From Bugula neritina (lineage: Eukaryota > Animalia > Bryozoa), in assembly GCA_964035545.1 (NCBI GenBank), contig OZ037768.1:10448741-10512740 (forward strand): 64,000 bases of DNA, given 5' to 3'. Positions 2,563-37,000 of this stretch are shown here, one piece after another (positions within the stretch are counted from its first letter, which is position 1; every line of letters begins with the position of its first letter). A program made the position numbers and the translations under genes. The notes below the pieces were generated by a model that saw only the letters and a list, made by a program, of their open reading frames with translations, did no database searches and was not told where the DNA came from.

Positions 2563-3193
2563 TGTTGTAGTGGAATTATGGACTTTAGACTTATTCAATT
2601 CTCATTCTACATTCTCATTTCCTTACGCCCAGCTACACCCCACATTAATATTAACTTTCCATTGTTATACAGATTAGAGACAATTAATGTCATCACAATA
2701 GCCAAGCTGTCTCCTACTGTCTGTAACATGTACTAATTTCGTTACAATTATAATTACATTTTCGCTTTGAAGTCAGTTGCTATACGTCAAACACCCTGGT
2801 CCTGCAGCTTCGTGGCTTTATCCTTATATGGAGATGCAGCCACCCTTGTAAAGGCAGTAACCTATCCTGAGATAGCTGACGTGGACCAACCGGCAGGAAG
2901 CCTAAGTATTACAGCCACTCTTGTAATACTGCAGCCTATCCTGAAGCAGCTGACGTGGAGCTAACCGGCAAGAAGCATCTTGCTACACCCAACAGCTATC
3001 TGAAGTCACTTCTCTGTAAGACCCAGCTTCAGGTAGACGCACTCAGAACGAGAGGAGTTATCTACAATCTACAAGGTAATTACCATAAAGTATATGCATA
3101 TAATACTGTTATAGTAAATCACTAAGGCTTAGCCATATTAGTAATAGCTGTACAGTAAGTTATAGCGGGATACCACAAGTTCCCGTTATAACA
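2563..3193 (+). repeat. 5' LTR of the env-bearing Gypsy element
   Basis: Direct repeat of 21185-22234, starts TG and ends CA, followed by a PBS. It contains an internal duplication (cctatcctga...ctgacgtgga...aaccggca twice) that is single in the 3' LTR. Confidence 0.9.
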
Positions 3194-3687: not shown

Positions 3688-4800
3688 ATACCCACCGCCA
3701 ATCCATTCCAAACGCAGATAATAGCAAGCGTGGCACCCAACTTGGATAGCCTGCCATCTTTTTCCGGCGACTCTACTGAGTCCTGGGAGAATTTTATAGA
3801 GAGGTGGGAAGTCCTGGTGGCCCCCAGCGATATGATAACGAACAACTAGCCCTCGCCATACCTGCCAAGCTCACTGGCTCAGCTTGGCAGACATATCGAA
3901 AGGTAGTGAAACAGGCGCCCGGCTGTGCCAGCAACTACACTGCACTTAAACCCAAACTGGCTACAATGTTTCAAAGTAGCAACCCACTGCTAGGGAAGAG
4001 CCTCTAGAAACTGTCACAGGGGAAGAAGACTGTTAGAGAATTCTTCACAGAAGTAGTTTCACAAGGCCAATCGGCATTCCTGGATATGCCGGAGGAATAC
4101 AGAGATAAGGTACTGACGAACGTCTTCATAGCAGGGTTGAACGAAGCCCATCAGAGGGATATCCTTCTGAAGGGTGAACTCACCCTGCAGCAGACCTTAG
4201 AGGAAGCAAAAAAGCTGGAGGCAGTAGACGGGGCACTCAAGACTCAAAAAATAAATTTCATAGAGTCAGAAATAGTCGCTGAAGTAAATTACACCTGGAG
4301 CCAAGCAGAACTCATAGCTCCTCTGCAAAAACAAATAGACGGTCTGGCTGAACTAATAAAAGCTCAGTCAATAATATCTAAGGAGCAAGCGGAGAAAAGT
4401 TACAGAAGCAATAACTACCAGCCCAACCGATACCGTGGTAGAGGACGCGGTGGTAACCGAGGCAACAGAAAAGGTGGCTATAACCAACCACAGCGCTACT
4501 ATAACCAAGGCGCCCACAACCAACATCAGGCCCCTTTTAACCAACATCAGGCCCCTTTTAACCAACAGAGAGGATCATACAACCACCAATCACTACACAG
4601 ACACAATAATGATCGCACAGGTCAGAACTACGGCAATGGGCGTAGACAAAATCCTTGGCCCTGCAAATCTTGCGTGATCCGGCATTATGGGAGCAAATGC
4701 TCTAATGTAAATGTCGTCAGCGACCTCGGTCCTGACGAGTTTGCATTCCAGTTCTTAAATCAAGATCCAGGCCAAGAACACGTCGATGCCGTAGAACTGA
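3688..4800 (+). pseudogene. gag: Gypsy Gag (capsid plus CCHC knuckle), decayed
   Basis: LPSFSGDSTESWENFIERW capsid start, LSQGKKTVREF motif, RG/N/Q-rich region, CX2CX3HX4C knuckle at 4662-4700. Lesions: 1-nt loss in the C-run near 3821 and TAG at 4005-4007. The start is inferred as ATG mutated to ATA at 3688. Confidence 0.85.
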
Positions 4801-4850
4801 CTCCCAAAGCAAGAAGACCGAAGGCCAAAAGTAGAAGAGGTGGCAAGAAA

Positions 4851-6864
4851 TTCTCAGTCATAAATGCAGTACAACTGGCCATGTTATGCTTGCTAAGCTG
4901 CTTCATTGGCTGTGGAGCGACCCCGGTAGAAGCAAAAAGCCCCATGGTGTACGGCTCACACCATACTGACCAACCCCACTTGTTCCGACTGAACACTAAC
5001 TACACCTGCCCCGGACATGACAAGACTGACCCCACGCGACAGCCCCAACAGACAAAAATCATGGTATACAAACCTAACACGATAGAGTGGGAGTCACCAG
5101 CTTACCAATGCAAGAAGTTCAAATCAGTAGTCACCACGTTAGTGTCTCTCTTCACCGACGTGAAAGTCCGGAATGCTCACATAGAGAACCGGCCTATCAC
5201 GCGGGGAGAGTGCATCGACATGGTTGCCTCTAAACACTGTGACACGGGCGAGCTTAAGAGCAGAAATGGTGTCTTCACTACGCGCAACAAGGTCGAAGCA
5301 GAGTACAAGCACTGCTGCAAGAAACGATTCTTCTCGAAGAATCAGTGCAGCATAGTTAAAGCGACCGTGTACAAAAGGCATGAGGATAAGGAATTCGAGT
5401 CCACTGCAGGTGATGTCCGTCATTGCAATTATGACGAAGGAAGCTGCAGATTGGACGACGGTTGCATTCTCATATGGGAACCACGGAAGCAGATCCACTG
5501 CAAGCATACAGAGTGGGACATCGAGGAAGGCACCTTCTTCGACAACCACTTCGTCAGTAGTGACCATTCAATGGCCTTGACGTTTGCCCAATATGGAATC
5601 AACTCGACGAAGGACTGCCATGGCAAGAACATGTTGATGTCAGACCAAAGGCTGATGTTAAGGTTCATGACGCCACTCCACAATGTTACCATTCGCAACA
5701 ACGTCACAGCCACATATCAAATTGTAGGCTTGTATGCGTCTACAATAAACGCAGTAGCACAAGCTCTGGCGTTAGAACAAATCACCACTGCACAAAAACT
5801 ATTCTGGACTTCATACTACTATTCGTGTCACAACACTGCCCAAACCATTAACCTCATCACTCTCTTACTTGAAAGACATCTCACAACAGCAGCAAGACAC
5901 GTTGCAATTGAGTAACGTGGTCGCGAAAGCCGGCCTAGGCTACTTAGAGGTGTACCCCTGCACTGAGTTGGAAAGAACTTCTTACCAACTACTGGAAATG
6001 AAACACAACAACTGCACCAACTACTTGCCGATACAAATATCTATAGCTAGTCTCGAATCCATTGGATATCTGGACCCTATAAAAAACATAATACACCCTG
6101 ACTCATACAACGTAGACTGCACCCACAAAGAGAAAGTTCCTGGGAAATTGGACGGTATTATTTACTTATATTCATGGAACGAATCTCTAAAACTGGCCCC
6201 AAACACTACAATTCTATCCCTGCCAAACATCAACTTAGGAGCTACTCCCTTGGAATTACACGAGAACATCTTCAGTTGTGCACATAGACTGAATCGGACT
6301 GATTTTAGTCATCACCACTCCTTAAATGCTATCCTTTCAACACTCAACCGCCAAGCACAGGTGTTGAAAACCGTTGGAGTTGTTAGCTCCTCACACTATA
6401 GACTAGACAAAAATAGAATAGAGACTCAAGAAGGCATACTGGGTAATTCATATTTCTCCTTCTTGTTCGGAGGTCATGTAGCCTCAGTATATGAATTGTG
6501 GACCATGCTAGCAAATCTCATTGTGACGATTGCTTCAGTTGTCTTCGTTTCAAAGAAATTATACTATCACCTGTGCATCAGATACATCTGCAAAAGGCGT
6601 GGCGGAATCGTAGTAGATGCTGTGGACATCATAGAACAAAGTAGAACACACCAACCAACAGCAGAAGAGACTAGGACAGCCACGGAATTGCATTCTTTAA
6701 TAAACCCCACTCATTCCCAAGTAGAAAGTACAACCCCCATTTCTGCTATTAACTCAAACACCCCACCAGCAAGGTTATACCCTGCACTTGAGGATATGAC
6801 CGAAACAGATGACATCGCTTGGCCTTCTTGGACCAAGCAAGCCAGGCAAAAGTCTTCACAATGA
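4851..6864 (+). pseudogene. env: Envelope glycoprotein, class III fusogen-like (gB/chuvirus/rhabdovirus G-like), in frame with gag
   Basis: Signal peptide FSVINAVQLAMLCLLSCFIGCGATPVEA. Cys-rich ectodomain (AYQCKK, ITRGECIDMV, CRLDDGCILIW, TTAARH, LEVYPC, CTNYLPI, GYLDPIKNII..DC) with many NxS/T sites. TM anchor near 6480-6550 and a cytoplasmic tail. One frameshift near 5902. Confidence 0.85.
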
Positions 6865-7184: not shown

Positions 7185-7349
7185 TTACTGAAGTGAACTC
7201 GATATTTTTGAAGTAAAACTTGAAACTTCAAGTTAATACCTTTAAATACCTTTTTAATACCTTTAAATCCACCCCGTTTTCCTTTCTGCTTTGGCCCGCG
7301 GAGCTCTGGGGGCTTCCAGGGATCGTGGGGTTTCTGCCGCTTCTTAGGT

Positions 7350-8156
7350 CCGTGGGCAGCTCGAGCGGCGGTGTCCTCTTGTGCCGCATCTCCAGCAACG
7401 GGTAGCTGGTCTGGGAGTCTCTACTCCTGGTCTCTTGTACTCCATGGGATTGCTGTATGTTATGGTCGCCACCAACTGTCCCAACATAGTCAAAAAGCGG
7501 TCGACCTCTGTCTCCAAAGAAGGGCTAGCAGTAGCGGCAGCTACTCAGACCGGATGGTCTGGTTCTCTAGTGGTTCGCGGGATAGTCTCTATCGCTCTAT
7601 AGAGTTGCTCGGCCCCCAGATATGCCTCGCTTTCCTGGATTGCAGCCTCTTTTGTGGTCACTCCTCTCGCTTGTAACTGGTGGTGGAGGCCCAAATTGTT
7701 GAGGGATTGTACAAAAGCCTCGAACGTATAGCGCCGTCTGTGTGTTTCTGGCAGGTCGCTATACGCGATCCGTGCCAGTCTCTTCACCAGAGTAGCGTGG
7801 TCCGGAAGTGGTGTACATGTTTTGCGGAGCAGTCCCTGTAAACGGGCCTTGGCGTCTGCGACAGGTATGCCAAAACGGGCCCGTAGCGCAGCAATGATCC
7901 CGTCTACGCTAGGTCTCAGCCCGTACGGCTTGGCTTGTTCCGTCAGTGCCATCCGTAGTTTTATCAGGGCTACTCTCGGCGGCCATTTTGTAATGGCTGC
8001 AACTTCATGGAATTCCCGAATAAATTGTTCAACATCTTCAAGGCCCGTGAAGGCGGGAGCCTCTAATGTATATTTATATGCCTCCTCTTCGGCCTCGGGA
8101 GAGTTTACGATAATGTCTCGCTCACCTTCTTCAGTTGAAGCTGTACTTTCGGCCAT
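7350..8156 (-). pseudogene. gag: Gypsy Gag of the second element
   Basis: APAFTGLEDVEQFIREF...ALRARFG capsid motifs. CWRCGTRGHRRSSC (CX2CX4HX4C) lies near 7355-7400, beyond a premature stop. Confidence 0.85.
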
Positions 8157-8198
8157 GATGCTCTAATGTTTTTCCATCGTCTCCAAACAGTAGCTAGG

Positions 8199-8216
8199 AT
8201 CCCACCGCTGCCACCA
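8199..8216 (-). promoter_or_regulatory. Primer binding site, tRNA-Leu
   Basis: 18-nt complement of the tRNA-Leu 3' end AUCCCACCGCUGCCACCA. Confidence 0.9.
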
Positions 8217-8484
8217 CTGTTGTGATTTACACAATACTAATGCCTGGTTCCTAGCTTGTAATTATGATTTGGTTATCCGCAGCAATATAGGGCTTGTGAT
8301 AAGATTAAAAGAGATTTATTTACAATTACATACTAATAAAATGATATAAGAAAGCGCACGGAATAAAGTATTACATCTTCCTAATTGCTAGTACACTCTC
8401 TCTACTGACAACCCTCTCGTTACGCATCGCTGGGGGCTGTGGCTAGGGGGACACGTGGACGCGCGTATTGCGCGCTCCACTACA

Positions 8485-10128
8485 ATAGCACCGCGCACCA
8501 TAGCGGCAAGCAAACAAGCTAAGCACTACTATTAGCAATAGCGTGCCTAGCCCCAAAATACTTATTATAAGGCCCCCATTTTGGTCCTCCTGAGCTGAGA
8601 ACAGCCCAGCAAAGTCGAATTCAGTAACGTTAGACCCTGTAGCATAGAGTGGCATATAAACTAGGAATGCTTACTCAAAGAGGCAATTTGATTGATATGA
8701 CTATGATGACGACCCTATACTGCTACTGCTTTAAACTAGACAATAGGTCTACTTACTAACCCCGCGTAACAGGCAGATCGGTAGTTGTTTCTAGGATATT
8801 CGGTGCTGTGCTGTACGGTGTAGAGGCTTCCCTGAGGCACTCTAGCACTCTCCCCCACCAGTAGTTACAATGTAACAGACAGGTCCAAAGGGCAAGGGTC
8901 CATTCAAGTCAATATAAGCAATAGCCTAGTGAATACATATATCAACCCCCCTCCCCCCCCTCAGTTAGATACTAACATATAACAGTCTGCTGATACCAAC
9001 AAATCTACCCCAATGCTTACTAACCCCTTGAGGAGTAAATAGAATAACGAATGGCAGGAGCCATTCCCTTTTCTTTTTATTGAGTGAGCAGCTTAACAGC
9101 TAGCAGTGGGTACCAGTGGCCCACTAGATCAATTATATATAATCATAACACAAAACACTGAAGCCGAAATACCCACTAGTTGAAGTTTTCTTTTTTTATA
9201 ATTATTATCTACTTACCCACTTATTTCAATATTAACCAGATAAAGATGGATCTATATGGGTGTATAAGTAACTAAAATAACTGTGAGACAAGTTACAACC
9301 AACAACACCCATCTCATTAAGTCTAATGACCATTATTGCCAAGTACAACTTCACTCTTGTTGATTAGAATTTTCTAATGTCAATACTACTCAACCAGACA
9401 TATTGACATAGTATCTATTAGTATTGACACCGCAACTAGTAGCAACACTGCAATTATTGTGGGTGGGTAATTCAGTCAGCAAACAATCCACTCATTAGTT
9501 TTACTTTAAACTTATAGTCGCAATACTGTACTGAAAATTTATCATTTTTTAAAAAAGAATTAAGTTTCAAAGTCAAATGGGAAATTACACTTAGTTTTGG
9601 TTATATCGTTTCAGGACATTTCCCTTCTAGACTAAAACTTTTACACGATTACAATTTTTAATTACTGAAGTAAACTCGATATTTTTGAAGTAAAACTTGA
9701 AACTTTAAGTTAATACCTTTAAATACCTTTGAAGACATAGAACACTTGGAAACACTAAAGGTTATAGAAGTGCGTCATTTGTTTTACAGTGTGGGCTAAA
9801 GGTTGGTAATTGTGTTAACTTTTTTTTACATGAACTCTCTGGTGTCTCTAATGGTTCTTGGTAAGAAGCTTACCATGGTACACTAGTGAGTTTGCATAAT
9901 TGGATGTTAGTTCACTGCGGGCAGAAGACCTAGTAGTTATTGACATATTTTAACGATCTCGTCTGATTTCGTCGTATGCCATTGCTAAGATTGAATGTTG
10001 TTCTTCTTTCTCCAGGATTTTCATGAGGAGATTGAGTCGGTAAGCCCTGCATCTCTGTTTGAGAGGCTGAAGGCCAAGCTGAGAGCATACCTCGGTTACA
10101 CTTTCTCGTCCCTTTTTTCCAGCAATAA
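8485..10128. repeat. Duplicated block, copy A (LINE 3' end plus about 1.2 kb of flank)
   Basis: Near-identical to 13424-15058. A third short piece lies at 7185-7267. Confidence 0.95.
9710..10128 (-). mobile_element. LINE 3' fragment (ORF2 C-terminus and tail)
   Basis: GRESVTEVCSQLGLQPLKQRCR...LPRTIRD and the AAAGGTATTT tail repeat. Same family as 14655-20650. Confidence 0.85.
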
Positions 10129-10413
10129 GCGAATACAATTGGTGGCTGATTAGGTTTACACTATTTCTATTTTTATTCATCTTTTTATTTGGAAAAAACA
10201 AACTATTTAATTGTCACGCGCTCTACGAGTTGACCTGCAACGGCAAACTAGGCTAATTAACAAAACTAGGGCCAAGGCCCCTAATAATAGCCCAACCGAT
10301 AGGCCAGTGTATCCTAAAAAATAAACACATGATTTTGTGAGCTAAGTGGTAGTTAGATTTGTTGTTAACATATTTACAACTGGTGTATACATATACAATA
10401 ATAAGAAAACATA

Positions 10414-13355
10414 TAGGGGTAAGTGGGGCAGTCTGGACCGTTTTTTAGTTTTTTACATATTTTGAACACGCTATTGGTGATATGCACAATTTAACGAGAA
10501 AATATGTTAGTTTTATATGTTGTGCTGTCTATGAAACACTTAGATAATTAAACTTCTCTATTTTCTCCTCGTCACAACCAATTAAAAATGTCTTCTCAAA
10601 AGGTCCGAACTGCCCCATAGTAGGGGCAGTTTGGACCAAAAGAAACAATTTTGTTTGAACCACACAGGAATTTTTTTTGTTATTTAAATGTAAGTATATT
10701 GTGCACTCTATGTAACATACCAGCATTAAAAACATGATGTGATTGATATTTTACATATAACATGTCCATATATTCACTAAGCAATAAGCAATGTTGTTCG
10801 GATATAATAATGAACGTAATATAATGCTTCCATTAAGTTCTGTTGACTAGAACTATAGTTTGTTAGGAGTGTTGTAGACGGTAGACCTTCCATCTTGCAT
10901 ATACTGCGATAAATCAATGTTGAATGTGAGCTTTTTACACGTGCGCTCAGTACCACCAGAACTTGTTGGGGTAGGTAACAGAAGCACCAGGTCGCAAATA
11001 TCAACTGTAGCAACATCTTCTTGCACTGGTACAATAAACTGCCTGTTCCCTACGCTCTTATAGAATGATATTACAGCTGTATCTTCGTCACGTTGAATAG
11101 AGTGGACAACCCCAGGAAAACGACGAACATTTTTCTTTCCCCTAAGTGCTGCTAACACGTAGCTTCCAACGTTCAGTTTGTCTGCCGTTATAGCTTCCAC
11201 ATCAGCCACCTCGTCCTCACTCGATGGGTCATCAGTATCATCATCAATTGGTATGGCAAAGTCTTCCTCACTACTGCTGCTATCTTCCTCTCTAGCAATC
11301 TTTCTCTTTTTCAATATTGATGGTTTTTTTGTTTTTCTAGCAATCCGTTCCATTTCCTCTTTCTTAAGTTAAATCTTTGTTGGAGTGTTGGTCAGAATAG
11401 TTGTTTTTCTCTTTCTGTTGCATTGTTTGGTTTTTCTGGGTCCAGCTTTAGCAAATGGTCGTACCTGTTCCGGTGTGATAGCACTTGGGTTGTTGGTATC
11501 CGCAGAATCACTAGATGGAGATGTCTGGCCATCAGAAGTAGTAGTTTGCTTGATAGAATTGTCAGAAACAGAGGCTACTACACCATTACATTCGACTTCA
11601 TCATGGTTACTTGGTTGGGGGCGATCAGTAACATATGATGAGAGAAAATCATCATCACCAAAAGCATTGCGATCTATTGGGCAAATACCAGGCTTTCGGA
11701 ATCCGCTTAAGATGTTGCTGGGTGTCATGGCTCTAGGATAAGCTAAGCTTAGCAAAGATGCCATATTGTAAATTGATAATGTTTGGCCAGGGTTACTCAA
11801 ATGCCACGATGTACAAGCTTCGTTAAAATATCGCTTCAACGGGCCATATACTGCAATGTCCAGTGGCTGCAGTTTATGGCTGCAATGTGGTGGGAATGTT
11901 AACATCACCACTCCACTCTCCTTGGCCAAATCTATGGCATCTATGCTTGTGTGGCTATCATGATTGTCCATCAACAGTAAGACAGGCCTATCTTTAGATG
12001 CTCTAGTATGCAGTTTGAAATGACGAAGCCACTCTATAAACAGTTCTCTTGATATCCATCCTGATTGACAAGCAGCACCTATTGAACCTACTGGAGCATC
12101 ATTAAGCATGAACTCTCGATATTTTACTCGAGGAAAGATCAACATTGGGGGAATACTGTTACCACCAGCACTAACAGCGACAACCATTGTGATCAAAACT
12201 CCTCGCTCAGCTGATGTTACATGACCAACTTGTCGGCACTTTCTATCTGCAATGACCTTTGGTGGTTTGTGTACAGTTGTAAGGCCAGTTTCATCCATAT
12301 TGTAGATTTCTGAAGCAGCAAACTTATATCTTTCCATTACCCATTGAAGATTGTCAAAAAACTGGTTAACATTCGCTCTGTTAAAGGCGGTACCTCTACT
12401 GAGGCTGTTAGGCTCTGGTTTTCTTAAACTTAGATCTGTGTGTCGTTTCATAAAGCCACTGATCCAATCTTTACCTGCACATTGTTCATAATCCCATGAT
12501 TTAGGATATGTAGCACCTACTTTTTTAGCATACTCCCATGCAAACTCCCTGGTCTTTTTCTTAGAAAGCCCGTGGTTCTGCTTTGCTGCCAATTTTAAAT
12601 AGTCCTCCAACATCCTCTCTTGCTCAGCGGTAAAGACTGCACGGCTTGAAGTAGATTTGCTATATGACATGTTAGATCCCTTAACCTTAGCCTCATCAAC
12701 ATAGCGTCTGAGTGTAGTACGTGAGACATTAGAATTTCTTGCTACTTGACGCAGAGATTCTCCAGCTAAAACCAATTCTACAGCTTCCTTCATTGCCATC
12801 TCAGAGACTTTTACCCCCTGTTTCTTTTTCTTGTAACTCCTAACCATGATGACGATGTTTAATCTAAAACAGTAAACAGAAAACTCTTAAATTGTAAAGC
12901 TCTACTCCATATCCCTTAGTGGTAATCATGCATTCTGTGGGCGGGGCACTTTGGACAGCGGTCCAAAGTGCCCCTATGTGTATGGGCCAAACTGCCCCAC
13001 CTGTCAAAATTTATAATTTTCTTATATATCTCAAAACTTGATTTAGCAAGATATGTTAGCAATGCATGATGATTAACTATGGTCATAGATGTTTGCATGC
13101 ACCAGATATGAATAAATTGTACAACACACATGACTTCAAAAATCTCCATTGAAAATAGTTTATCAAATTTTATTTATAAATATCTGCTTACCTCTTCTTC
13201 TAGAATAGCAGCATGTGGACAAAAACAATATGGCAGACTTTTTACATCCTCTTCTTGGTTTTCCTAGAAGAAAGACAACTCAAAACAAATTAGATTTAGC
13301 TGCAGATTGGGTGGTCCAAACTGCCCCTGTGTCCAAACTGCCCCACTTACCCCTA
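10414..13355 (-). mobile_element. Complete pogo/Fot1-like (IS630-Tc1-mariner) DNA transposon
   Basis: TIRs TAGGGGTAAGTGGGGCAGT(C/T)TGGAC at both ends, flanking TA duplication, and internal copies of GGGGCAGTTTGGAC near 10602-10638, 12942-12998 and 13313. Confidence 0.95.
10853..12847 (-). pseudogene. pogo-family DD35D transposase (about 664 codons, one in-frame stop)
   Basis: N-terminal psq and CENP-B-type HTH domains, NMDETG, LLMDNHDSH and LQPLD with 35 residues between the last two Asp. ORFs 11369..12847 and 10853..11353 share a frame, separated by TAA at 11369-11371. Confidence 0.93.
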
Positions 13356-13399
13356 TACATACAATATATACATATAAGCAGTAAAAAGAAAGAAAAGTT

Positions 13400-13823
13400 A
13401 TTTGGGGTGGTTCTATACTCTATATAGCGCCGCGCACCATAGCGGCAAGCAAACAAGCTAAGCACTACTATTAGCAATTGCGTGCCTATTCCCAAAATAC
13501 TTATTATAAGAACCCCATCTTGGTCCTCCTGAGCTGAAAACAGCCCAGCAGAATCGAATTCAGTAACGTTCGACCCTGTAGCATAGAGTGGCATATAAAC
13601 TAGTAATGCTTACTCAAGGAGGCAATTTGATTGATATGACTATGATGACGACCCTATACTGCTACTGCTTTGAACTAGACGATAAGTCCAATTACTAACC
13701 CCACGTGACGGGCAGATCAGTGGTAGTTTCCTCCAATTCCACGGGTGTACTGTAAAGCGTGGAGGCACTGCTAAAGCATTCTAAAACCCTCCCTCGCCAG
13801 CAATTGCAGTGCAATGGGCAGAT
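13400..13823 (-). other. Cryptic spliced gene or pseudogene for a small Cys-rich single-pass membrane protein (second copy at 8485-8884)
   Basis: Exon 13700-13823 ICPLHCNCWRGRVLEC...TTTDLPVTW between CAG and GTTAGT. A phase-compatible TM exon starts at 13575. Differences between the copies are strongly biased to synonymous sites. No start codon found. Confidence 0.5.
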
Positions 13824-15058
13824 CTGAAGGGCAAGGATCCATTCAAGTCATTATAAGCGATAGCCTAGTAAATGCATATATCAACCCCCCTCCCTAGTTA
13901 GATACTAACATATAACAGTCTGCTGATACCAACAAATCTACCCCAATGCTTACTAACCCCTTGAGGAGTAAATAGAATAACGAATGGCAGGAACCATTCC
14001 CTTTTCTTTTTATTGAGTGAGCAGCTTAACAGCTAACAGTGGGTACCAGTGACCCACTAGATCAATTATATATAATCATAACACAAAACACTGTAGCCGA
14101 AATACCCACTAGTTGAAGTTTTCTTTTTTTATAATTATTATTTATTTACCCACTTATTTCAATATTAACCATATAAAGATGGGTCTATATGGGTGTATAA
14201 GTAACTAAAATAACTGCGAGACAAGTTACAAGCTATACTTACATCAACCAACAACACCCATCATTAAGTCTAATGACTATTATTACCAAGTACAACTTCA
14301 CTCTTGTTGATTAGAATTTTCTAATGTCAATACTACTCAACCAGACATATTGACATAGTATCTATTAGTATTGACACCGCAACTAGTAGCAACACTGCAA
14401 TTATTGTGGGTGGGTAATTCAGTCAGCAAACAATCCACTCATTGGTTTTACTTTAAACTTATAGTTACAATACTGTACTGATAATTTATCATTTTTAAAA
14501 AAAAATTAAATCTCAAAGTCAAATGGGAAATTACACTTAGTTTTGGTTATATCGTTTCAGGACATTTCCCTTCTAGACTAAAACTTTTACGCGATTACAA
14601 TTTTCAATTACTGAAGTAAACTCGATTTTTTTGAAGTAAAACTTGAAACTTAAAGTTAATACCTTTAAATACCTTTGAAGACATAGAACACTTGGAAACA
14701 CTAAAGGTTATAGAAGTGCCTTATTTGTTTTACAGTGTGGACTGAAGGTTGGTAATTGTGTTGACTTTTTTTTTGTATGAACTCTCTGGTGTCTCTAATG
14801 GTTCTTGGTACACTTGTGAATTTGCATAGATGGATGTTAGTTCACCGCGGGCAGAAGACCTAGTGGTTATTGACATATTTTAGCGATCTCAACTGATTTA
14901 GTCTTATGCCATTGCTAAGATTGAATGTTGTTCTTCTTTCTCCAGGATTTTCATGAGGAGATTGAGTCGGTGAGCCCTGCATCTCTGTTTGAGAGGCTGA
15001 AGGCCAAGCTGAGAGCATACCTCGGTGACACTTTCTCATCCCTTTATTCTAGCAATAA
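13424..15058. repeat. Duplicated block, copy B
   Basis: Near-identical to 8485-10128. Confidence 0.95.
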
Positions 15059-16632
15059 ACCTCACTGCCCTGTGCTGTAACATTTCCAGAGACTCGATGT
15101 CTTTAGCTAATGTTGGATCCCATACGGTATCTGCATACTCGAGGATGGGGCGGCCCAGACTAGTGTAGACCAGTAACGTACCTTCTCTGTGGCCTTATAT
15201 AGAACATGTTAAATTGCTCCCAGAATTTTCAAGTGTAATATGCTGATCAAATTTAAAGTTTGACTGCATTACAACCCTCAATTATGTTGAGTCTACCCAA
15301 TCTATCTTTGCTTCACCTTGCTTGTACAGAGGTTTGTTATTTTGATTGCCAAACGCTATGATTTTGCATTTACCTTCATTGAAAGGCATTTACCAATCAA
15401 CTGACCATTTGTGTATGGCATTGATGTTTTCCTGGAATGTTGCAGCGTCTTCTTTTGTGTCAACAGCCTGATACAGTAGCGTATCATCAGCATAAAGGCT
15501 TACACTGCAGTTTAATTTTAGTGGGAGATCATTAATATATATTAGAAATAGTGTTACACCTAGGACTGAACCTTGTGGAATCCCTGAGGTTACTTCTAAT
15601 TCTGAGGAAAATTTTCTGTCAATAACTACTTTTTGTTTTCTATGTGTCAAAAAATTTTGAATCCAGTTTACCTGTTGTGGATGTATTTCTGGTATTAGTC
15701 TTAATTTTTGCATTAGTAGACGATGAGGCACTTTGTCAAAAGCCTTTTTGAAATCAAGTACCATAGCATATGTGGTTTTTATTGTTTCCTTAGTTTTTGC
15801 TAGTTCATGGTATATGGCACAGAGTTGTGTTTCACAAAACCTGCCTCTTCTGAATCCGTGTTGTCTGTTGTAGAGAAAATCATGTATGGTTCAAATAATG
15901 AAGTACAATGTGTTCCATCATTTTGCATGGGATACTAGTTAGTGATATGGGGCGATAATTACTTGCTACCACCTTATCTCCACCTTTGTGCACTGAGGTG
16001 ACATACGCAAGCTTCCACTGGGCGGGTAACTTTTCTGAGTCTATTGAGGCTTGAAATACCTGTTTTAGGCACACAGCTGACATCATGACATCCAAAAGTA
16101 AATCTGGTTTGCGAATTCCATCAGGTCCTGGAGATTTTCCATTTGATAAACTGTTTATCAATTTAATGAGACCTTCAGTAGTTATCTCTGTAGGTGCTGC
16201 CGCAGTTTTTCTAGTTGAAGAGTGTTTGAAAATTGCTGATCTTTACAGAATTGATTCTGAAAATATTTGTTGAGGATGTTTGCACACTCTCGCTTCTTCA
16301 GTGATTTTTCTTTGTCAACTATTCAATTTTATACTGAAATCGCTATTTGACCTAATATTTTTAGGTGCTTGTAAAAAGGTTTAGAGTTACCTTTTTGAAG
16401 TGGTTTGCACAACTTTTCTATTAAATGTTCTCTTTTTTCTGTTGACATCCAGTTTTACTAGTTCTTCTTTCTGCATGGTATTTATGTATAAAATATGTGT
16501 CGCCAATCTCTTTATACTTTTTCCAGGTTCTTCTACTTTTTTGTATTAGTTTTTTCGTTTTCCTATTCATCCATTCTGGCCAGCTGTAGTTTTTTGGATA
16601 TAGCAACTTTGTGGGGATATTGTTGTATTTTT

Positions 16633-19085
16633 TGTGGGTTGAATAGAACTAGTGCCTGAACATGCTCTTTGTTAGAGAGAACAAGATGTGTTGTACAGTT
16701 GAAGCAATCTTTATTGAGTCGAATAATATAATAATTAAGATCCTCTGCCATTGAGCTTCAGTAGTAGACTGAACTACACTGGAGCTCGCTGGTTTTTATA
16801 TACAGCAAGAGATAGGGTTTTTCCTTTGTTGCCGAATCGGAGGTCCAAAACGACGACCTTCGGCATTTCGGAAGTCCGAAATGCCGATCTCGGGCAACAG
16901 GAAACAAGCACATGCAAAGATCCACCACACACACCTCCCATCGGAAAGTACACTTTCCGATAAGAGGGAATGTGACACCAGTAACAAAAAGAAAAAAAAT
17001 GACCAATGCAGGGGACAACACAAGAAGTTTTACACAAAAAATGGTATGACAGGTAAAAATAAAAAAAAATAACAGCATGCGACACATAAACTACAATATC
17101 ATGCAAAATAATAAAAACAAAAGAACATGCTCCCTCCACCAGTGTCAACATAAAACAGTCTTATTGCTGGTCTGTGTCGCCTGCCCGCTCCAGACGGCTC
17201 ACGCGCCGTCTTAGCTCCCCCAACTCCTCCTCATATCGCCTCAGGCGCAGGGACCGGACCTCCTCCTCCAGCTGTATGGATGCAGTGTGGCCGGTGGCGC
17301 TATGCCGGGGTCGTCTTCTTCCTCCCGTCGCCGAGGGTCGCTGACTCAGGCCCGGAGATCCGGACCTGCCGCCTTCGACCCGTGCCAGCACGACCCGAAG
17401 TGGCTGGGTGGCCGCTGGTTGAGGTGTCACGACGGGCTCCTCTTCTACCTCCCTGATTGGGCGGCATGCGGGAAACCCCTGGGCGAAGGTAGCCCGTTTG
17501 CGGGGGTCCGCGACATGGGGCAGCACCAGGTCCCGGAATTCGGGGAAACTGGCCTGATCCACCGCAAACGTGTGGCCCGTGTGGCAGCGCGAGATGCGCT
17601 GATGTCTCAGCACGTAATCGCGCTGATAAGAAAATTCGCCATACGGGCAAAACACGTTAATGTAGTGCTGCGGGGCGTGAACCCGCAGCCGCCGTGTGGA
17701 GGAAAACTTCCTCCGACACTACTGGCAGATGCGGTTGCCCGGCTCGCCGCATGTCTGGCCAATTTTCAGGTTGGTTTCCCGGGAAACCCAGTACTGGCGG
17801 GCAACCAAAGCCCGAGGCAAAGCCAGTATCTGGGAGCTATCTTCCTTCTCTGTGGGCTCCCCACCGAGCAGTATGCCCTGCTCCTCCCCGGCTGAGAGCT
17901 GGAGCTCAACCGGGTTAGACCCAGGGCCACTTGCGGTGGTGGGAGGCACCCCGGTCGGTGGAGCGGCGCCCTGCTGGCTGCTGGGAGTCGGAACAGGGGC
18001 CGGTGGAGGGGGGGAGTTGGTATAACTCGACCTGACCTCATCTACATCCATACAATTCCCTACAACAGATAGGAGAGGCTGTGACAAGCCGATCTCTCTA
18101 TCGCCGAATTTCGGCATACACTTATACGAGACTAAGCTACAAACTGGGGGCCGAGATGAGTCAGAGAGTGTGACTGAGCCCACGTCTTGGTCCAACAAGA
18201 AGTCGTGGACAGGGTCACCTTCCAGATCCATCTCGGTCTCGGGTTCTAATAAGTCAGATTCTAAAGAATCTAACAAACTCCAATCAACATTAGCTCGGTT
18301 GGACTCCGTTTGTGGAGGTTCCAACCTTAAAGGAATACCTGTAGTGACGTTAGTAGTTTCAATGAGTGTAGCATCCATGTCCGAGTTGGAGTTTGGTTGT
18401 GATTTAAAATTATAATTCAAATTTTGTTCGTTAATTTTCAAATTGAGTGCTGCTGGCGCGGTGGCTGTAGTAACAATGGCCGAGCCTCGTGTTTCAGAAT
18501 TATTACCTGCAACGGCGATGGCCACGTGATCCGTGGGAATTCCCATTAAATATTGAAATGACAACTCAGGCAATCGCGGCCCCCCGAAATTCGGTCTGAG
18601 TTTTCCTTCTGTCGGTGGAATTCTCTGGAGTATTGGAGGAAATTGCCACCCAAGGCAGGGTAGTCTGTAGAATTAGGGGGACTAGGATCACGAGGGGATA
18701 ACTCCAGGCGTCCTCCTGCATAATCTGCCAAGTATCTAGGAGGTTTTCTGTCCCTCTGGCTCCTTTCAAGCCGTACGGGTTCTGTCAGGGCTTGCGATTC
18801 TTCGACTACTGCGGTGGGGGAGGGGGGTCCTGTCATCACTGGCGCTATGGGCGGGGACGTCTTCCTCCAGTTGGGGTGGTACCCTCGGGGCCTGTGATTG
18901 CCGTAATTGTCGCCCCTGCCTTTGTTGCTGTTCTAGTTGCTCCAGTAGGGCGGCCTATTCACGTGCTGCCTCTCTCTGAATGACAACTTTCACCTCTCTG
19001 GGTTGGGTGACTCTCCCTCGATGGTTGGGCTGGCGATTGGGCTCTAAGAGGGGTGGAGCCTGACCAAAATATTGCCATTTTGGGC
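16633..19085 (-). mobile_element. Third Gypsy element, 3' fragment (integrase tail, accessory ORF, PPT, 3' LTR) inserted in the LINE
   Basis: GC-rich block with the RLERSQRDRKPPRYLADY integrase-end motif. LTR 16633-16929 (TGTGG...CCACA) with TATATAAAA and AATAAA. G-rich tract at 16930-16940. Confidence 0.82.
17161..18573 (-). pseudogene. Accessory ORF: acidic and Pro-rich region, C2H2 zinc finger(s) and C-terminal coiled coil
   Basis: ORFs 17719..18573 and 17161..17655 are the same frame split by one TAG. The joined sequence gives CQxCRRKFSSTRRLRVHAPQH, a canonical C2H2 finger. Confidence 0.75.
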
Positions 19086-21184: not shown

Positions 21185-22234
21185 TGTTGTGGAATTATGG
21201 ACTTTGGATTTATTCAATTCTCATTCCACATTCTCCTCTCCAGACCCCCAGCTCTACCCCACATAAATTAACTTTCTATTGGTATGCAGACTAGAGATAA
21301 TTAATGTCATAACAATAGCCAAGCTGTCTCCCACTGTCTGTAACATTTACTAATTTCGTTATAATTGCAATTACACTTTTGCTTTGAAGTCAGCTCTGAC
21401 TCGTCAAACATCCTGATCCCTGCAGTTACGTGGCCCTACCCTTATATGGAGATGCAGCCACCCTTGTAAATGCAGCAACTTATCCTGAGCAAGCTGACAT
21501 GGATCTAACCGGCAAGAAGTCTCTTGCTACACCCAACAGCTATCTGAAGTCACTTCTCTGTGAGACCCCGCTTCAGGTAGACGTAAGCCAGAACGAGAGG
21601 AGTTATCTACAATCTACAAGGTAATTACCAGGGTTGGGGTAATTGTAATCTGTAATTGTTTGTAATTAATTACATTTTTTCAAGTAATTGAATGTAATTT
21701 GTAATTGACGTATAAAAATGTAATTGTAATTAATTACATTGCTAATGTAATTGAATTTTACAATAACTTTATAATTACATAACAATTACTTCAAATTTTT
21801 AAATCTTAGAAAGTTCATATTTTACCTGCCTTGCCTACTGTTCAATAAAAAGTTCAGAATAATTTAATGTCGTATTTATCACCCTATTCGTTACTGTTGA
21901 GAACAAAGAAGGTTTTCAGTTGTCAAAATTGCCCCTGGTAGTTGGACCCCAGAAGTGAGATTATATAACTTTTATTTGTCTCTTGTGAGAACAAAAGTAC
22001 TTGTAATTAATCACATTACCATGTAATTGTAATTAATTACATTTGTTTCAACTGTAATTGTAATTCGCAAATTATCATGTAATTGTAATTAATTACAGTC
22101 ATATGTAATTGACCCCAACCCTGGTAATTACCATAAATTATATGCATATAATACTGTTATAGTAAATCACTAAGGCATAGCCATATTAGTAACAGCTAAG
22201 TTGTAGCAAGATACCACAAGATCCTGTTACAACA
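21185..22234 (+). repeat. 3' LTR of the env-bearing Gypsy element (contains a MITE)
   Basis: Direct repeat of 2563-3193 once 21629-22123 and one TSD copy are removed. Confidence 0.9.
21629..22123. mobile_element. Non-autonomous hAT element (MITE)
   Basis: 12-bp TIR CAGGGTTGGGGT and 8-bp TSD GTAATTAC (21621-21628, 22124-22131). The empty site is in the 5' LTR near 3076. Subterminal GTAATT repeats. Confidence 0.93.
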
Positions 22235-24989: not shown

Positions 24990-25223
24990 TCGTATTCAGT
25001 ATAACTATAAGTATAAGTATTCTATTGCTAATAGTAATACTAATAGTAATAGTAATAGTAAATGTAATACTTATACTAATACTAATAGTAATAGTAATAC
25101 TGTATTATTATAAATATATCAACTAGTACATTTTCTATTACTATTACTATTAGTACAACATTAATTATGTTACGCTAAGTATTAGTATGACTCTAACTCT
25201 AAGTATTACTGTATTACTACTAG

Positions 25224-25270
<47 letters not shown>

Positions 25271-26030
25271 GTAGTACTACTACTACTACTAATACTACTA
25301 CTACTACTACTAGTCTTAGGTTTATTATTAATATTATATTCAGTTTCACTTATTTATAATAATTATTTATTTATAAGCGTAATAAATGAATGTTACAATG
25401 ATTAACTATAACTATAACCTGTCTCAGTAACTGAGAGTGACTATCAGTATCACTATCACTATGAGTATGAAGATAAGTATCAGTATGTCACTATGAGTAT
25501 GATTATGACTATGAGTATCAGTATGAGTATAATTATAATTTAAACTAATACTAATAGTAATAGTAATACATTATGAGTATACATTTAATTTTATACTATA
25601 ACTATAAGTATAACATTAAATATACTGAGTACTAACACTCTAAACGAAATTCTAAGTCTAGGCATTACTATTACTAACTATTAGTATTAGTATTACTATT
25701 ACTATTAGCATAAGTAATACTAATAGTATAACTATAAGTTTTACTTTTAGTTATTACTATAAGTAGTATAAGATTAGTATAACTATAAGTATAAGTATAA
25801 CTCCCTATAACTAATACTATAAGTATAACTATAAAAGTAAGAGTAAAACTGAAGGTAGTAGGAAGCCTAAGAGTAAGAGTAACTCAAACTTAAACTGTAA
25901 GTATTACTATTACTAATACTATTACTATTAGAATTACTATTAGTATTACTATTACTATTAGTATTAATAATAGTTATACTAAAAGTAATACTAATAGTTC
26001 TATTAGTACTGATTATAAATATAAGTATAA
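24990..26030. repeat. AT-rich simple-repeat tract including an (ACT)n microsatellite near 25215-25312
   Basis: Runs of TAATAG, TACTAT, ATAACT, ATGAGT and ACT. Confidence 0.9.
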
Positions 26031-26041
26031 CCATCGTAATT

Positions 26042-26592
26042 GGGTTTCGTTCCAGATAGACGCTTCCCAGTTAGACGCTTCCTCTTTAAATGCTTCCCAC
26101 CTAGATGCTTCCCATTTGGACGCTATATATTTATTTTGGTACAGTTTTTTATAGCAATATACCTATACATGCCTATATAACTGTTGTATTGATTGCTAAA
26201 CATGAAATAATAGTCAATATAAATAATCTGGAAAAATATTCCAATTTTCACAGATTTGTGTGGAACAAAAAATCAGCAATACATTAATAATAAACATTAT
26301 CTATAATGAATACTTATTTATGAAATATTTTTTCAAACAACAAGAAGTATAGAAAATGCAAAATTATAAGATAATGCAGATCAAAGGAATTTATTTCAAA
26401 ATTCAAGGAAATCTAATAATGCCTAAATATACATATATTTCAGTAATATTAAATAAATTGCTCATAAAATACATATATTGTTCCAAAATAAATAAACAGC
26501 GTCTAAATGGGAATCGTTCACGTGGGAAGTGTCTGAGTGGGAAATTTAGCCTAGCGTCTAACTGGGAATCTAATGTAATCTAATGACACCCC
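26042..26592. mobile_element. Decayed foldback/MITE-like element
   Basis: Arrays of TTCCCANNTAGACGC on the left are mirrored by GCGTCTANNTGGGAA on the right, around an AT-rich core. No clear TSD. Confidence 0.6.
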
Positions 26593-34056: not shown

Positions 34057-37000
34057 CTAAAGATACAAGCTCGCGGCAAACACAATGTCTCGTTTTATTT
34101 GACGAATTCCTTCGGCAAATTTATTTTCAAGGTCTGTGTTTCCAATGGCTTTGGCAGCCTGACAGAGTTGCCTCAATGTCTCCTCAAGTTGCCTCATGCA
34201 CCTTATTATACTCCCCTCAAATATGTCGGTCATCTTGCAAATTTGAGCAAATGTATGACCTTTACACCAGGCGCTGACCACATCCATCATGCCCGGTACA
34301 AACTTCTGCACGTATTCGTCTTCATCGATGTCTAGCTTAGCCTCTTTGCTAACCTTAAAACCAAGTTTAGACTATACTGAATATGCTGAGCTGTTTACAA
34401 ATTGGCAGTGTTACATGTATACAAAAACTGGGCCACGGAGTCATAGCATTCTAGCTATATACGTACTAACACACAAGATGATACCTTCTTTGTAGAAGAC
34501 ATCAAAAGTACATCAACACAAGTATTCTCTAAACTCTTTACAATATTGAACTACTAATAGCCATTATATAAACCAGCTACAGATGTAAAGCCTTACTGAA
34601 AGCTGTAAAACACACAGTACATTGAAAACATGTCCAAGTACTGACTAGATTACCTTAGCGATTCGCCGGGCAGTGTCCTGCATGATTCTGAGAGGTCCCG
34701 AGAGCTCAGCACTCAGTTTGGTCGCCTCACCACTCGTCTTCTCCTCAAAGACAAAACAGCTCACAAGTGCACACACCTAGAAATATGCAGCCAAGTCTAA
34801 GTTATACAAGAAGAAATAAACTAACCACTTTCTAATTAGCATTGGAGTTCCTCAAGCAACCGATTTTCTTGAGTAATTGTAGTGCCCAGTGGATCTGAGC
34901 TGCAAACAGTTTACACAACATTATAATGTAAGCGTGTTGGTGGCAGAAATTTAATGCAGAAAAATCTCGCTAAAAATTACATTAGTCTATCAAAATAAAT
35001 CCCTCAATATACTTGTTATAGCTTGTTTTTAATGATGTGAATTACTTAAGATTGCATTTAACTTTTCGTACAAACATTCACACCACAATGAGTTACATGT
35101 TGAGTGAAATGTAAACAACTAACGGACTGATCTGGCTGTCGTTTCATCTCTAAACATGATAGGAATGGAACTCTGTGTTTCTTTAACAAAAATATAATAT
35201 ACAACTAATTTCTAAATGCTTCCATCATTTTAAGAATAATCAAAAGGCTTTCACATTCCTAAAGCAGTAAATCACAACAAAACACACTCCAGAGTTACCT
35301 CCCTAATTTACTTGATATTCACTGCAGATGAGTGAGCACGTTCTGCTGTGATTGTACACCAATGAAGCGTTACACAGATTGGTCTAAGCTTGCATATTTT
35401 GGATGCAAGAAGAAAGAACAGCCTCTCCAGAACATGGTAAGTGGATAGCTGGATACTGGTTACACCAGAACAACTTGAGTGTGGTTATATCAGAACAGAA
35501 TTGACAAGTGACTCTCACCTGAGGCACCTCAAGATCGTTGAAGACGCCATTAAATAAAAGCTCTGTCAGCAATAGTTCGTCGGCAGCACTTATCTCGCAG
35601 GCAACCCTCCCCTTCAACTCAATAGCGTCTGATGCACTTGCATATCCCAGACGACGCAAAACCCGTTTCCGACATTTCAGCTCATCCATTTGCAATAAAG
35701 ACCGCTTCTTCTTCAGCTCAGTCTGCCAGAGATTACATGCATTGCATGATCAGAGTGCCAATATTATGTACAAGGAGGCAGAACTCAATGAAAGATTAAC
35801 AGAGACAAAAAATTGGAAGCATTGTAAATTTGTATATTTTTTGCAAAATTGAACCCATCAGTCGGTTGTGAGAGAGTTTCAATGTTGGGAATCTGTTCGT
35901 AGATTAAATGTTGGACCAAATTTTAACACATAATTTAAAATAAAGTAAATTACAAGTTAAACCAGTGTATGAGACCCATCATTTCCAGATATGGCTAATT
36001 GAGAACTAATACGAGTCCGCTACCCTAAGATAAACATACTTTGAGTGATTTGATTTCCCCTGCTACTTTTTGCTTCTCTGTGTATATTGAAAGCATCTGA
36101 GGCAGATTGGGGTTTGAGTGTAGCTCGTGAGTTTCCATCCTAGATAGGTTAACATACGACACTTGATAATTCACAAAGAACCAAGATACTAAAAGACAAG
36201 AATACACTGGCAGAAGCTCAGAAAATCAACTGCTAAGGAAAAGATAAACAAACTATAGCTTTTAACCTTTCTTCAAACGCTTCAATTTTTTGCACAATGT
36301 CTTTCAGCTGTGGATCCTTTATACCCATATCTTTAATAGGGTCGAGTAAGGGGAGGCCAGCCGGGAACCTCTTTTCCACTTCCTGTATAGATTTGAGAAC
36401 ACTTTGGCGATTGTCTCTGGACTTCATATCACTTGGCAGGTACAACCTGACAGCCGAGATCTTTCGTATTACAGAAAGCAGGACAGGAACCACCTGTTAC
36501 AATATAAACATATAATCATGCAGCTACTGCAGAGACCTAGTGTAGAAAACAACATTTACTATAGAAAGCAGAAGATTGTAAGACTACCTATTCTAATTAA
36601 GCACTACTTGCATATTACAAAAACCGATATACCACCAATAAACAGCTGGTGTTAGTGGCACCACATGTGGGAACTGTAGACCAAATTGGTAAATAAATTC
36701 TTAAATGGTGATTTCCACTCACCAGATCAAAACAAGAATACGCAACACGTTTCCATACATCTGGTAATCCAATCAAGTAGTCGAGTCACATACCTGCATT
36801 TCTCCAAGGTGAGGTGCTTCAGGTGGAGATATCATGAATATGTCTTTGCTTTTAGCCGCCTCTTTACAAACATTCATTAGAACTTCTACTGTATAGTCAA
36901 TTGTCTCCTCCTGATGGTATTTATCTTTTTTCACTGCTTTGTGAAAATTGACCACAGCTGCCCAGCCAAATGTCTTTTCATTGTGTTTTATATACAATAA

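Follow-up and report, generated by a model that had tools for sequence, protein, structure and literature searches.

Two blocks on the minus strand of the window, the 64,000-nucleotide stretch of Bugula neritina DNA analyzed here, are near copies of each other except within one patch of 124 bases. The question is what this patch is, and how it came to differ so strongly from its counterpart within surroundings that hardly differ at all. An earlier note on the sequence had proposed that the patch is a hidden exon, swapped between old alleles of a surface protein under selection.

Alignment with blastn placed block A at 8485-10128 and block B at 13424-15058. The blocks are direct repeats, 4.9 kb apart on one sequence, and are 90.5% identical over 1661 columns when gaps are counted. 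Outside the patch, 69 of the 1491 aligned bases differ (4.6%), and the 43 gap columns lie mostly at two indel spots. When identity was calculated over a sliding 40 nt, values of 0.9-1.0 were obtained nearly throughout, the exceptions being the two small indel spots and the patch. The gap-free minimum of 0.575-0.70 was reached only over 8761-8900 in A and 13700-13840 in B. Within the patch itself (8761-8884 in A and 13700-13823 in B) 43 of the 124 bases differ, compared with 69 of 1491 in the remainder of the block (Fisher p = 2.6e-22), and the outermost differences, at 13826 and 13703, are no more than 3 nt from the exon edges that the earlier note had given. The near identity of the blocks apart from the patch, the sharp boundary of the divergence and its much greater age in the exon than in the flanks were all borne out.

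The differences within the patch follow the codons of the minus strand. The third, first and second codon positions account for 26, 10 and 7 differences, respectively (chi-square p = 7e-4). Of the 41 codons, 10 are identical between A and B, 17 differ only synonymously and 14 change the residue, so that the earlier hand count of about 17 synonymous differences was reproduced exactly. The proposed frame contains no indels or stops in either copy and is the sole open frame in both, the other two being interrupted by stops in each. The peptides that had been read from it, ICPLHCNCWRGRVLEC...ETTTDLPVTW in copy B (13700-13823, minus strand) and the homologous TCLLHCNYWWGRVLEC...ETTTDLPVTR in copy A (8761-8884, minus strand), were confirmed exactly. 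By the Nei-Gojobori method, there are 23.2 synonymous differences on 29.0 sites (pS 0.80, saturated and too high to be corrected, so that dS cannot be estimated from the A and B exons) and 19.8 non-synonymous differences on 94.0 sites (pN 0.21). The resulting pN/pS is 0.26, and the synonymous excess has a Fisher p of 2.4e-8. The 124-base patch is a real protein-coding exon, rich in cysteine and in serine and threonine, and the claim that the listing of open reading frames had missed it holds on the codon-position pattern and the single open frame. Selection on the exon was seen only in its purifying form (pN 0.21 vs. pS 0.80); there was no sign of diversifying selection, and the comparison of A with B gave no excess of amino acid change, that is, no dN/dS at or above 1. 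Transitions and transversions number 30:13 inside the patch and 49:20 outside, the changes are symmetric, and nothing points to a special mutation process. A tblastn search of the window with the exon peptide returned only copies A and B.

The sequence adjoining the exon in copy B has the features of a splice junction on either side. Read directly, ccttgcccttcag| precedes the exon, with a CAG acceptor at 13824-13826, and G|GTTAGT follows it, with the GT donor at 13698-13699. The exon ends in phase 1 and, across a predicted 163-nt minus-strand intron (13537-13699 in B, 8598-8760 in A) with a G|GTTAGT donor and a ttttcag acceptor, reads on in frame as A-QEDQDGVLIISILGIGTQLLIVVLSLFACRYGARRYIEYRTTP. 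These motifs suggest that the Cys exon is spliced in phase 1, from G|GTTAGT to ttttcag|, to an exon encoding a transmembrane helix. Against this model, GTTAGT is not a strong donor, and copy A has, 4 nt downstream, a better-looking GTAAGT whose use would break the frame. A weak hint in favor of the donor site is that contigs of the public runs X9 and X10, from two studies, stop at 13698/13699, whereas those of the DNA run X1 continue; none of the runs is listed as RNA, and X4, X7, X9 and X10 are taken as RNA only by guess. No contig joining 13700 to 13536 was found among the contigs of the public runs, and those presumed to be RNA, their status being guessed, pass through the intron and are uninformative on expression.

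The predicted transmembrane exon begins AQEDQDGVLIISILGIGTQLLIVVLSLFACRYGARRYIEYRTTP... in copy B (13403-13536, minus strand), where it is identified by its hydropathy and by three database proteins. In copy A it occupies 8485-8597 on the same strand, the likeness to B ending at 8485 after ...CRYGAR. The Kyte-Doolittle score over 19 residues is 2.52 in B and 2.83 in A, and the basic residues CRYGARR come next. This exon lies 163 nt from the Cys exon and differs between the copies at only 6 of 107 bases, so the old divergence is confined to the Cys exon. The three database proteins (P0003-P0005, from JGI data) are 65-66 residues long and 86-91% identical to the transmembrane exon, with the helix conserved. 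Each has ...RTTPNN or ...RTTPQS before its stop, which makes the membrane exon of the family a terminal exon with a 17-residue tail. All three begin at an ATG inside the predicted intron, which may be the choice of a gene caller working on short contigs, and the FS residues that are invariant in their alignment coincide with the ttttcag acceptor. Among the variable places listed for the contigs, third codon positions account for 8 of 12 in the membrane exon, for 6 of 13 in the final 73 nt of the intron and for 3 of 7 further up. Given the ATG at which these proteins begin, the membrane exon could yet be a stand-alone small ORF of 65 residues. A separate small transmembrane terminal exon, GYTGLSVGLLLGALALVLLISLVCRCRSTRRARDN followed by a stop, lies between the blocks at 10207-10313 on the minus strand (Kyte-Doolittle 2.76). 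It has a ttttttag acceptor and an AATAAA at 10184-10189, 18 nt downstream, and is only faintly like the membrane exon of the family (tblastn E = 0.07).

The predicted product would be a small single-pass membrane protein in which a hairpin with four cysteines is followed by a stalk of Ser/Thr, the membrane helix and a tail of 17 residues. The earlier description of it as a surface protein is, with a transmembrane exon adjoining, a reasonable prediction for a protein of the surface or membrane. No convincing first exon or signal peptide was found by three-frame reading of 13824-14460, where a short first exon would easily be missed. The upstream stretch ...FTPQG|GTTAGTAAG at 13955 was tried as an exon and rejected; its donor motif and phase fit, but it has neither a start codon nor an acceptor. 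An 11-nt motif, GGGGTTAGTAA, is present both at the exon donor (13690-13706) and 255 nt upstream (13955-13975), after the open ...FTPQG; the repetition may be fortuitous or may mark the remnant of another exon. Pfam searches of 49 of the 91 upstream minus-strand ORFs returned only a weak DUF match on the LINE tail and the DSHCT exon of a helicase.

Database relatives of the Cys exon were sought at several levels. Against longer proteins the peptide had six candidates, none at E <= 10; no relatives were found among proteins of near its length, and the ESM Atlas gave no usable match. Two matches at E <= 0.001 in a library of 1.84 billion representative proteins were rejected, these being repeat proteins that share only short Ser/Thr motifs (ETTTDLP; RVLHCP..TPYS). 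Pfam returned no family at E <= 10 for either 41-residue peptide and none at E <= 0.1 for the 50-residue ORF, with the proviso that HMMER filters can drop very weak matches.

The peptide had been likened to an LRR N-terminal cap, which we take to be LRRNT (Pfam PF01462). The cap has the consensus spacing CPxxCxC(x6-9)C. The motif CPxxCxC...C is whole in copy B, where the four cysteines are spaced C-P-x2-C-x-C-x7-C, and a partial third version of the exon, read by hand, keeps CxC. In copy A it is CLLHCNY, the proline and one cysteine having been changed. The motif LxxLxLxxNx[LIVF] was present in none of the 91 minus-strand ORFs of at least 45 residues between 8000 and 35000, and no LRR family was matched by the 49 of them that were scanned with Pfam. 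The AlphaFold2 model has a beta hairpin at residues 6-16 (strands 6-9 and 12-16), with pLDDT 76-80 over the first 20 residues and a mean of 64, which is low confidence; for this model, Foldseek found no PDB match at E <= 10 and VIA none with Z >= 2 among 48161 chains. With no Pfam match at E <= 10, no LRR-like ORF upstream and no fold match, the cap idea, which comes down to the cysteine spacing of copy B, was not supported.

Neither copy in the window appears intact. In copy A, TGG (tttgg|) stands where B has CAG (ttcag|), so the acceptor AG is missing. Moreover, there is an in-frame TGA 24 nt upstream of the exon, and within the exon Cys8 has become Tyr and Pro3 has become Leu. The missing acceptor AG, the lost cysteine and the truncated last exon make it probable that copy A is a pseudogene fragment whose exon is dead. 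Past the end of A, copy B continues to match the other copies of the family for another 21-28 bases, and loose contig ends fall at 13403/13396 in all four runs. Beyond 13403 copy B departs from the family, the stop of its relatives is missing, and a 2.9-kb pogo-like transposon follows. The status of copy B is doubtful, and it may be a pseudogene fragment as well.

The pogo-like DNA transposon, at 10412-13357 (minus strand), does not belong to the gene family. Its 27-nt terminal inverted repeats are 96% complementary, and it carries an uninterrupted 505-residue DDE_1/HTH frame and a second frame of 171 residues. In runs X4 and X7, a contig joins 10404 to 13401 through 96 different letters and without the transposon, so that the insertion may be recent or polymorphic. 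Run X4 also has contigs 97-98.5% like the transposon.

Further copies of the family were sought in the contigs of public runs over 13380-14100 at 80% identity, X1 being the best DNA run. For this stretch of 721 nt, X1 has 22 contigs, 4 of them at >=99% identity, 5 at 95-99%, 9 at 90-95% and 4 below 90%; X4 has 17 contigs, X9 has 5 and X10 has 8. The listed X1 pieces differ from the flanks of B by 5-13% (for example 6/126, 14/171 and 40/317). A 532-nt contig of X7 fits 13513-13742 and 13816-14042, with the intervening 73 nt reported as "same length, diverged", and two X1 contigs join across the exon core, one from 13730 to 13827 and the other from 13649 to 13789. The core at 13755-13779 was not covered in four runs at 80% identity, a hole that by itself proves nothing. 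In a search of metagenome contigs, a 20-nt flank pattern matched no stretch, and of 83 matches to a peptide pattern none was confirmed by tblastn.

Additional versions of the exon were read by hand from loose contig ends that enter it, after reverse complementation. The version covering codons 21-30 is TLHSTVAELQ, compared with TLYSTPVELE in B; 11 of 30 bases differ, with two codons identical, four synonymous and four changed. Over codons 17-26, a second version has DSTSAFHSTA for SSASTLYSTP in B (12 of 30 bases; one identical, three synonymous, six changed). The third, SNCNC at codons 3-7, differs from the LHCNC of B at 5 of 15 bases and keeps both cysteines, one of them through a synonymous codon. 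A fourth loose end, LHSTAVELQ, resembles the TLHSTVAELQ version, but its register as reported is off by one base, which may point to a frameshift in that copy or to an offset in reporting. Together with A and B, the three versions read in register bring the number of exon versions to at least five. Across the family the exon versions are 35-40% apart and the flanks 5-13%.

At 33 listed variable places in the flanks, A agrees with B against the others at 23 and with the others at 10; these places were ascertained against B and are therefore silent on whether A or B changed. In their flanks, A and B are each other's nearest relatives. Exchange between diverged copies, the substance of the earlier proposal, is the best explanation of the locus. 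However, since both versions lie 4.9 kb apart on one sequence and more versions exist in the contigs, the partners are paralogs and not alleles.

The origin of the duplicated blocks was considered next to their surroundings. On the minus strand, both blocks start in LINE sequence that encodes the C-terminal tail of the reverse transcriptase (...LEYADTVWDP...LQHRAVRFIARIKG...). In block B, this LINE tail takes up the upstream 450 nt, and the reverse-transcriptase gene reaches to about 16242, with an RVT_1 domain at 15390-15890 (Pfam, E = 8e-23); block A starts inside the same tail. Only B extends upstream into the reverse-transcriptase domain, and A is preceded by unrelated sequence. The shared start in the LINE tail, together with a continuation in B alone, fits a duplication at the DNA level with a break inside the LINE. 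From a third, 69-nt copy of 9662-9730 at 7185-7253, the end of the LINE is tentatively placed near 9662/14608, which would leave about 785 nt between it and the exon. Inspection of the block ends revealed neither poly-A nor a repeat or microsatellite tail, and likewise neither terminal repeats nor a target duplication. Because poly-A, tail repeat and target duplication are missing there, the pair is read as a DNA-level segmental duplication with one break within the LINE and not as retrotransposition. 3' transduction or retrotransposition of the block was rejected, since 8485/13424 carry neither poly-A nor a tail and the introns have been kept.

The first 24 kb of the window are dense in mobile elements. 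Two plus-strand copies of a retroelement-like unit (1-2000 and 4008-6864), 95-96% identical in their shared parts, have a gag-like region rich in Gln, Asn and Arg, a CCHC-like motif and a Cys-rich, envelope-like frame of 635 residues; no Pfam family was matched. The end of a very high-copy element with a 205-residue frame, likewise matching no Pfam family, lies at 7545-8236 on the minus strand, and loose ends of 11 X4 contigs fall at its boundary at 8236. Repeat copies 86-96% alike at 21185-22197 and 2566-3149 have the highest summed contig depth in all four runs. Within the LINE-rich region, the minus-strand stretch 17164-18672 is GC-rich (48%) and has frames of 185 and 317 residues without Pfam matches. 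Farther along, 25000-26050 is AT-rich (27% GC), with degenerate 3- and 6-nt tandem repeats rich in CTA/GTA. Exons of an Mtr4/SKIV2L2-like RNA helicase are found on the minus strand at 34060-39552 (DSHCT at 34060-34371, E = 1.5e-34), with more helicase-like ORFs at 35-39.5 kb; the last exon, on the strand of the Cys exon, ends about 20 kb upstream of it. A nuclear-receptor-type zinc-finger DNA-binding exon was recognized by reading at 51895-52257 on the plus strand.

The reading we favor, with a confidence a little better than even, is that a coding exon within a local duplication of 1.65 kb was overwritten in one copy by a gene-conversion tract from a paralog. A LINE would have inserted upstream. 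The 3' part of the gene, from the LINE tail through the transmembrane exon (1.65 kb), would then have been copied at the DNA level to a site about 400 bases farther downstream, in a recent event. In a subsequent step, a conversion of about 130-200 bases from a third, long-diverged member of the family would have overwritten the exon in A or B, the converted tract extending about 30-50 bases beyond the exon at either end. Gene-conversion mosaics are recognized by a discrete, highly diverged tract within a duplicate that is otherwise little diverged, and such a tract was found here. Furthermore, the putative tract, placed at 13672-13874 by the step in divergence and with no strand assigned, has inner flanks (13672-13699 and 13824-13874) that differ at 12 of 79 positions (15%) vs. 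57 of 1412 (4.0%) elsewhere, with p = 1.6e-4 for limits that were chosen post hoc, after the data had been seen. The 15% is close to the 5-13% that separates the flanks of other copies from those of B. Possible donors with homologous flanks exist, in the form of the 22 X1 contigs in four identity classes and the three related membrane-exon proteins. No copy carrying exactly the exon of A or of B was seen among the contigs, which counts against the conversion reading and leaves its direction, A or B, undecided.

Two observations argue against a single tract. The divergence step coincides with the exon edges to within 3 nt, more closely than expected of a random tract, and the contrast between exon and flanks is family-wide, so that one conversion event explains the window but not the family. 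At the level of the family, conversion would run through the similar flanks and halt at the diverged exon, sharpening the island to the exon edges. It is probably in this way, by conversion stopping at the diverged exon, that the exon versions stay apart and the flanks alike.

The possibility was also considered that the A/B pair is old, its flanks homogenized by repeated conversion and its exon versions kept apart by selection or by heteroduplex rejection, in the manner of exon 2 in the MHC genes of birds and mammals. Such a history would be in keeping with the step at the exon edges and with the family-wide contrast, in which the flanks of other copies are 87-95% like B and the exon cores are unalignable at 80% or of the "same length, diverged" kind. 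It is hard to reconcile with the sharp block ends, with a LINE tail and 1.1 kb of intron uniformly diverged by 4.6%, as in one young duplication, and with an adjoining transmembrane exon that is young too (6/107). Moreover, the inner flanks differ by 15%, as an imported tract would give, and not by 4%, and there is no excess of amino acid changes indicative of selection for difference. We consider an old pair unlikely, although it retains an appreciable share of plausibility.

It is rather doubtful that the unit of Cys exon, intron and membrane exon is the cargo of a low-copy mobile element that transposed recently, with lineages recombining in the exon. Several copies exist in the genome, the LINE tail lies directly upstream on the same strand in both blocks, the region is full of mobile elements and no host-like 5' exons were found, all of which would suit an element. 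However, the LINE end as tentatively placed by the third 69-nt copy is about 785 nt away from the exon, on its upstream side; the block ends are free of poly-A, of a microsatellite tail, of terminal repeats and of a target duplication; and a mobile element would be expected to yield more contigs. As to which element family carries the segment, a question the earlier note had raised, none appears to carry the exon; the LINE tail is upstream in the block and the pogo-like transposon lies between the copies.

Mutation aimed at exons, which has reportedly been proposed for the toxin exons of cone snails, would here have raised the divergence after a recent duplication, with purifying selection acting on the result. 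Synonymous and non-synonymous divergence in the exon both exceed that of the intron, and the flanks just outside are mildly raised. Even so, we regard this as very improbable. The fraction of differing positions drops from 63% of third positions to 15% and then to 4% within a few bases, the transition:transversion ratio is equal inside and outside, the changes are symmetric with no single-base bias, and pN/pS is 0.26 compared with values near or above 1 in toxin-like cases. That the patch is merely a non-coding divergent spot, its open frame and codon pattern arising by chance, is scarcely credible, for despite a peptide without database homologue or Pfam family and the lack of a spliced contig, the codon-position skew (p = 7e-4) and synonymous excess (p = 2.4e-8) are strong, no stop interrupts the frame in A, in B or in the three partial versions read from contigs, synonymous codons preserving the cysteines, and canonical splice motifs in B accompany a frame continuous into a conserved membrane exon.

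The earlier exon-swap reading was right in kind, then, but the exchange would have been between paralogs, and both copies in the window are probably relics. A coding exon that is undetected by ORF lists and homology searches can be recovered simply by comparing how two local duplicates differ. It belongs to a small gene family without relatives among 1.8 billion representative proteins, in which an ectodomain exon is far older than its surroundings. Events of this kind are known; it is the gene family that appears to be new. If the family is expressed, it would offer a compact case of conversion and divergence carving exon-sized islands, and might come into consideration for a role in surface recognition in a host that carries symbionts. 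Should the copies be dead, as A seems to be, the locus is an ordinary mosaic pseudogene. A bolder reading, to which we give little credence, is that the family consists of lineage-specific tiny membrane receptors whose ectodomain exons are ancient cysteine-knot cassettes moved between loci across homogenized introns; were it true, surface diversity in this symbiont-hosting animal would be maintained and reshuffled through germline exchange of single-exon cassettes.

Several known systems resemble the locus in part. Any likeness of copy B to LRRNT caps would lie in the cysteine spacing and the predicted hairpin. However, what comes next is not a series of repeats but a Ser/Thr stretch and a membrane helix, and copy A is without the proline and one cysteine. 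In venom and conopeptide genes, a hypervariable mature-peptide exon is accompanied by conserved introns. As here, a small cysteine-framework exon differs between paralogs whose introns and neighboring exons are alike; those genes, however, have dN/dS near or above 1 and encode secreted products, whereas here synonymous change dominates and a membrane anchor follows. The introns of MHC genes are younger than exon 2, and in MHC class II B, exon 2 is far more diverged across paralogs than the flanking introns, as is the Cys exon. For the black grouse MHC, the published study describes concerted evolution that homogenizes sequences at different loci (PMC3652749). The present exon differs from MHC exon 2, which has an amino acid excess at the binding site, in its pN/pS of 0.26, and it has no likeness to it in sequence or fold. 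The mosaics produced by interparalog gene conversion in globin duplicates, of which the bank-vole beta-globin genes are a case according to the report on them (PMC6209878), differ in that the tract here is almost exactly one exon, the donor is inferred and the family is unannotated and without known relatives. In both, nevertheless, a short foreign tract lies within near-identical duplicates, the same family offers potential donors, and the tract has the typical length of one to two hundred bases.
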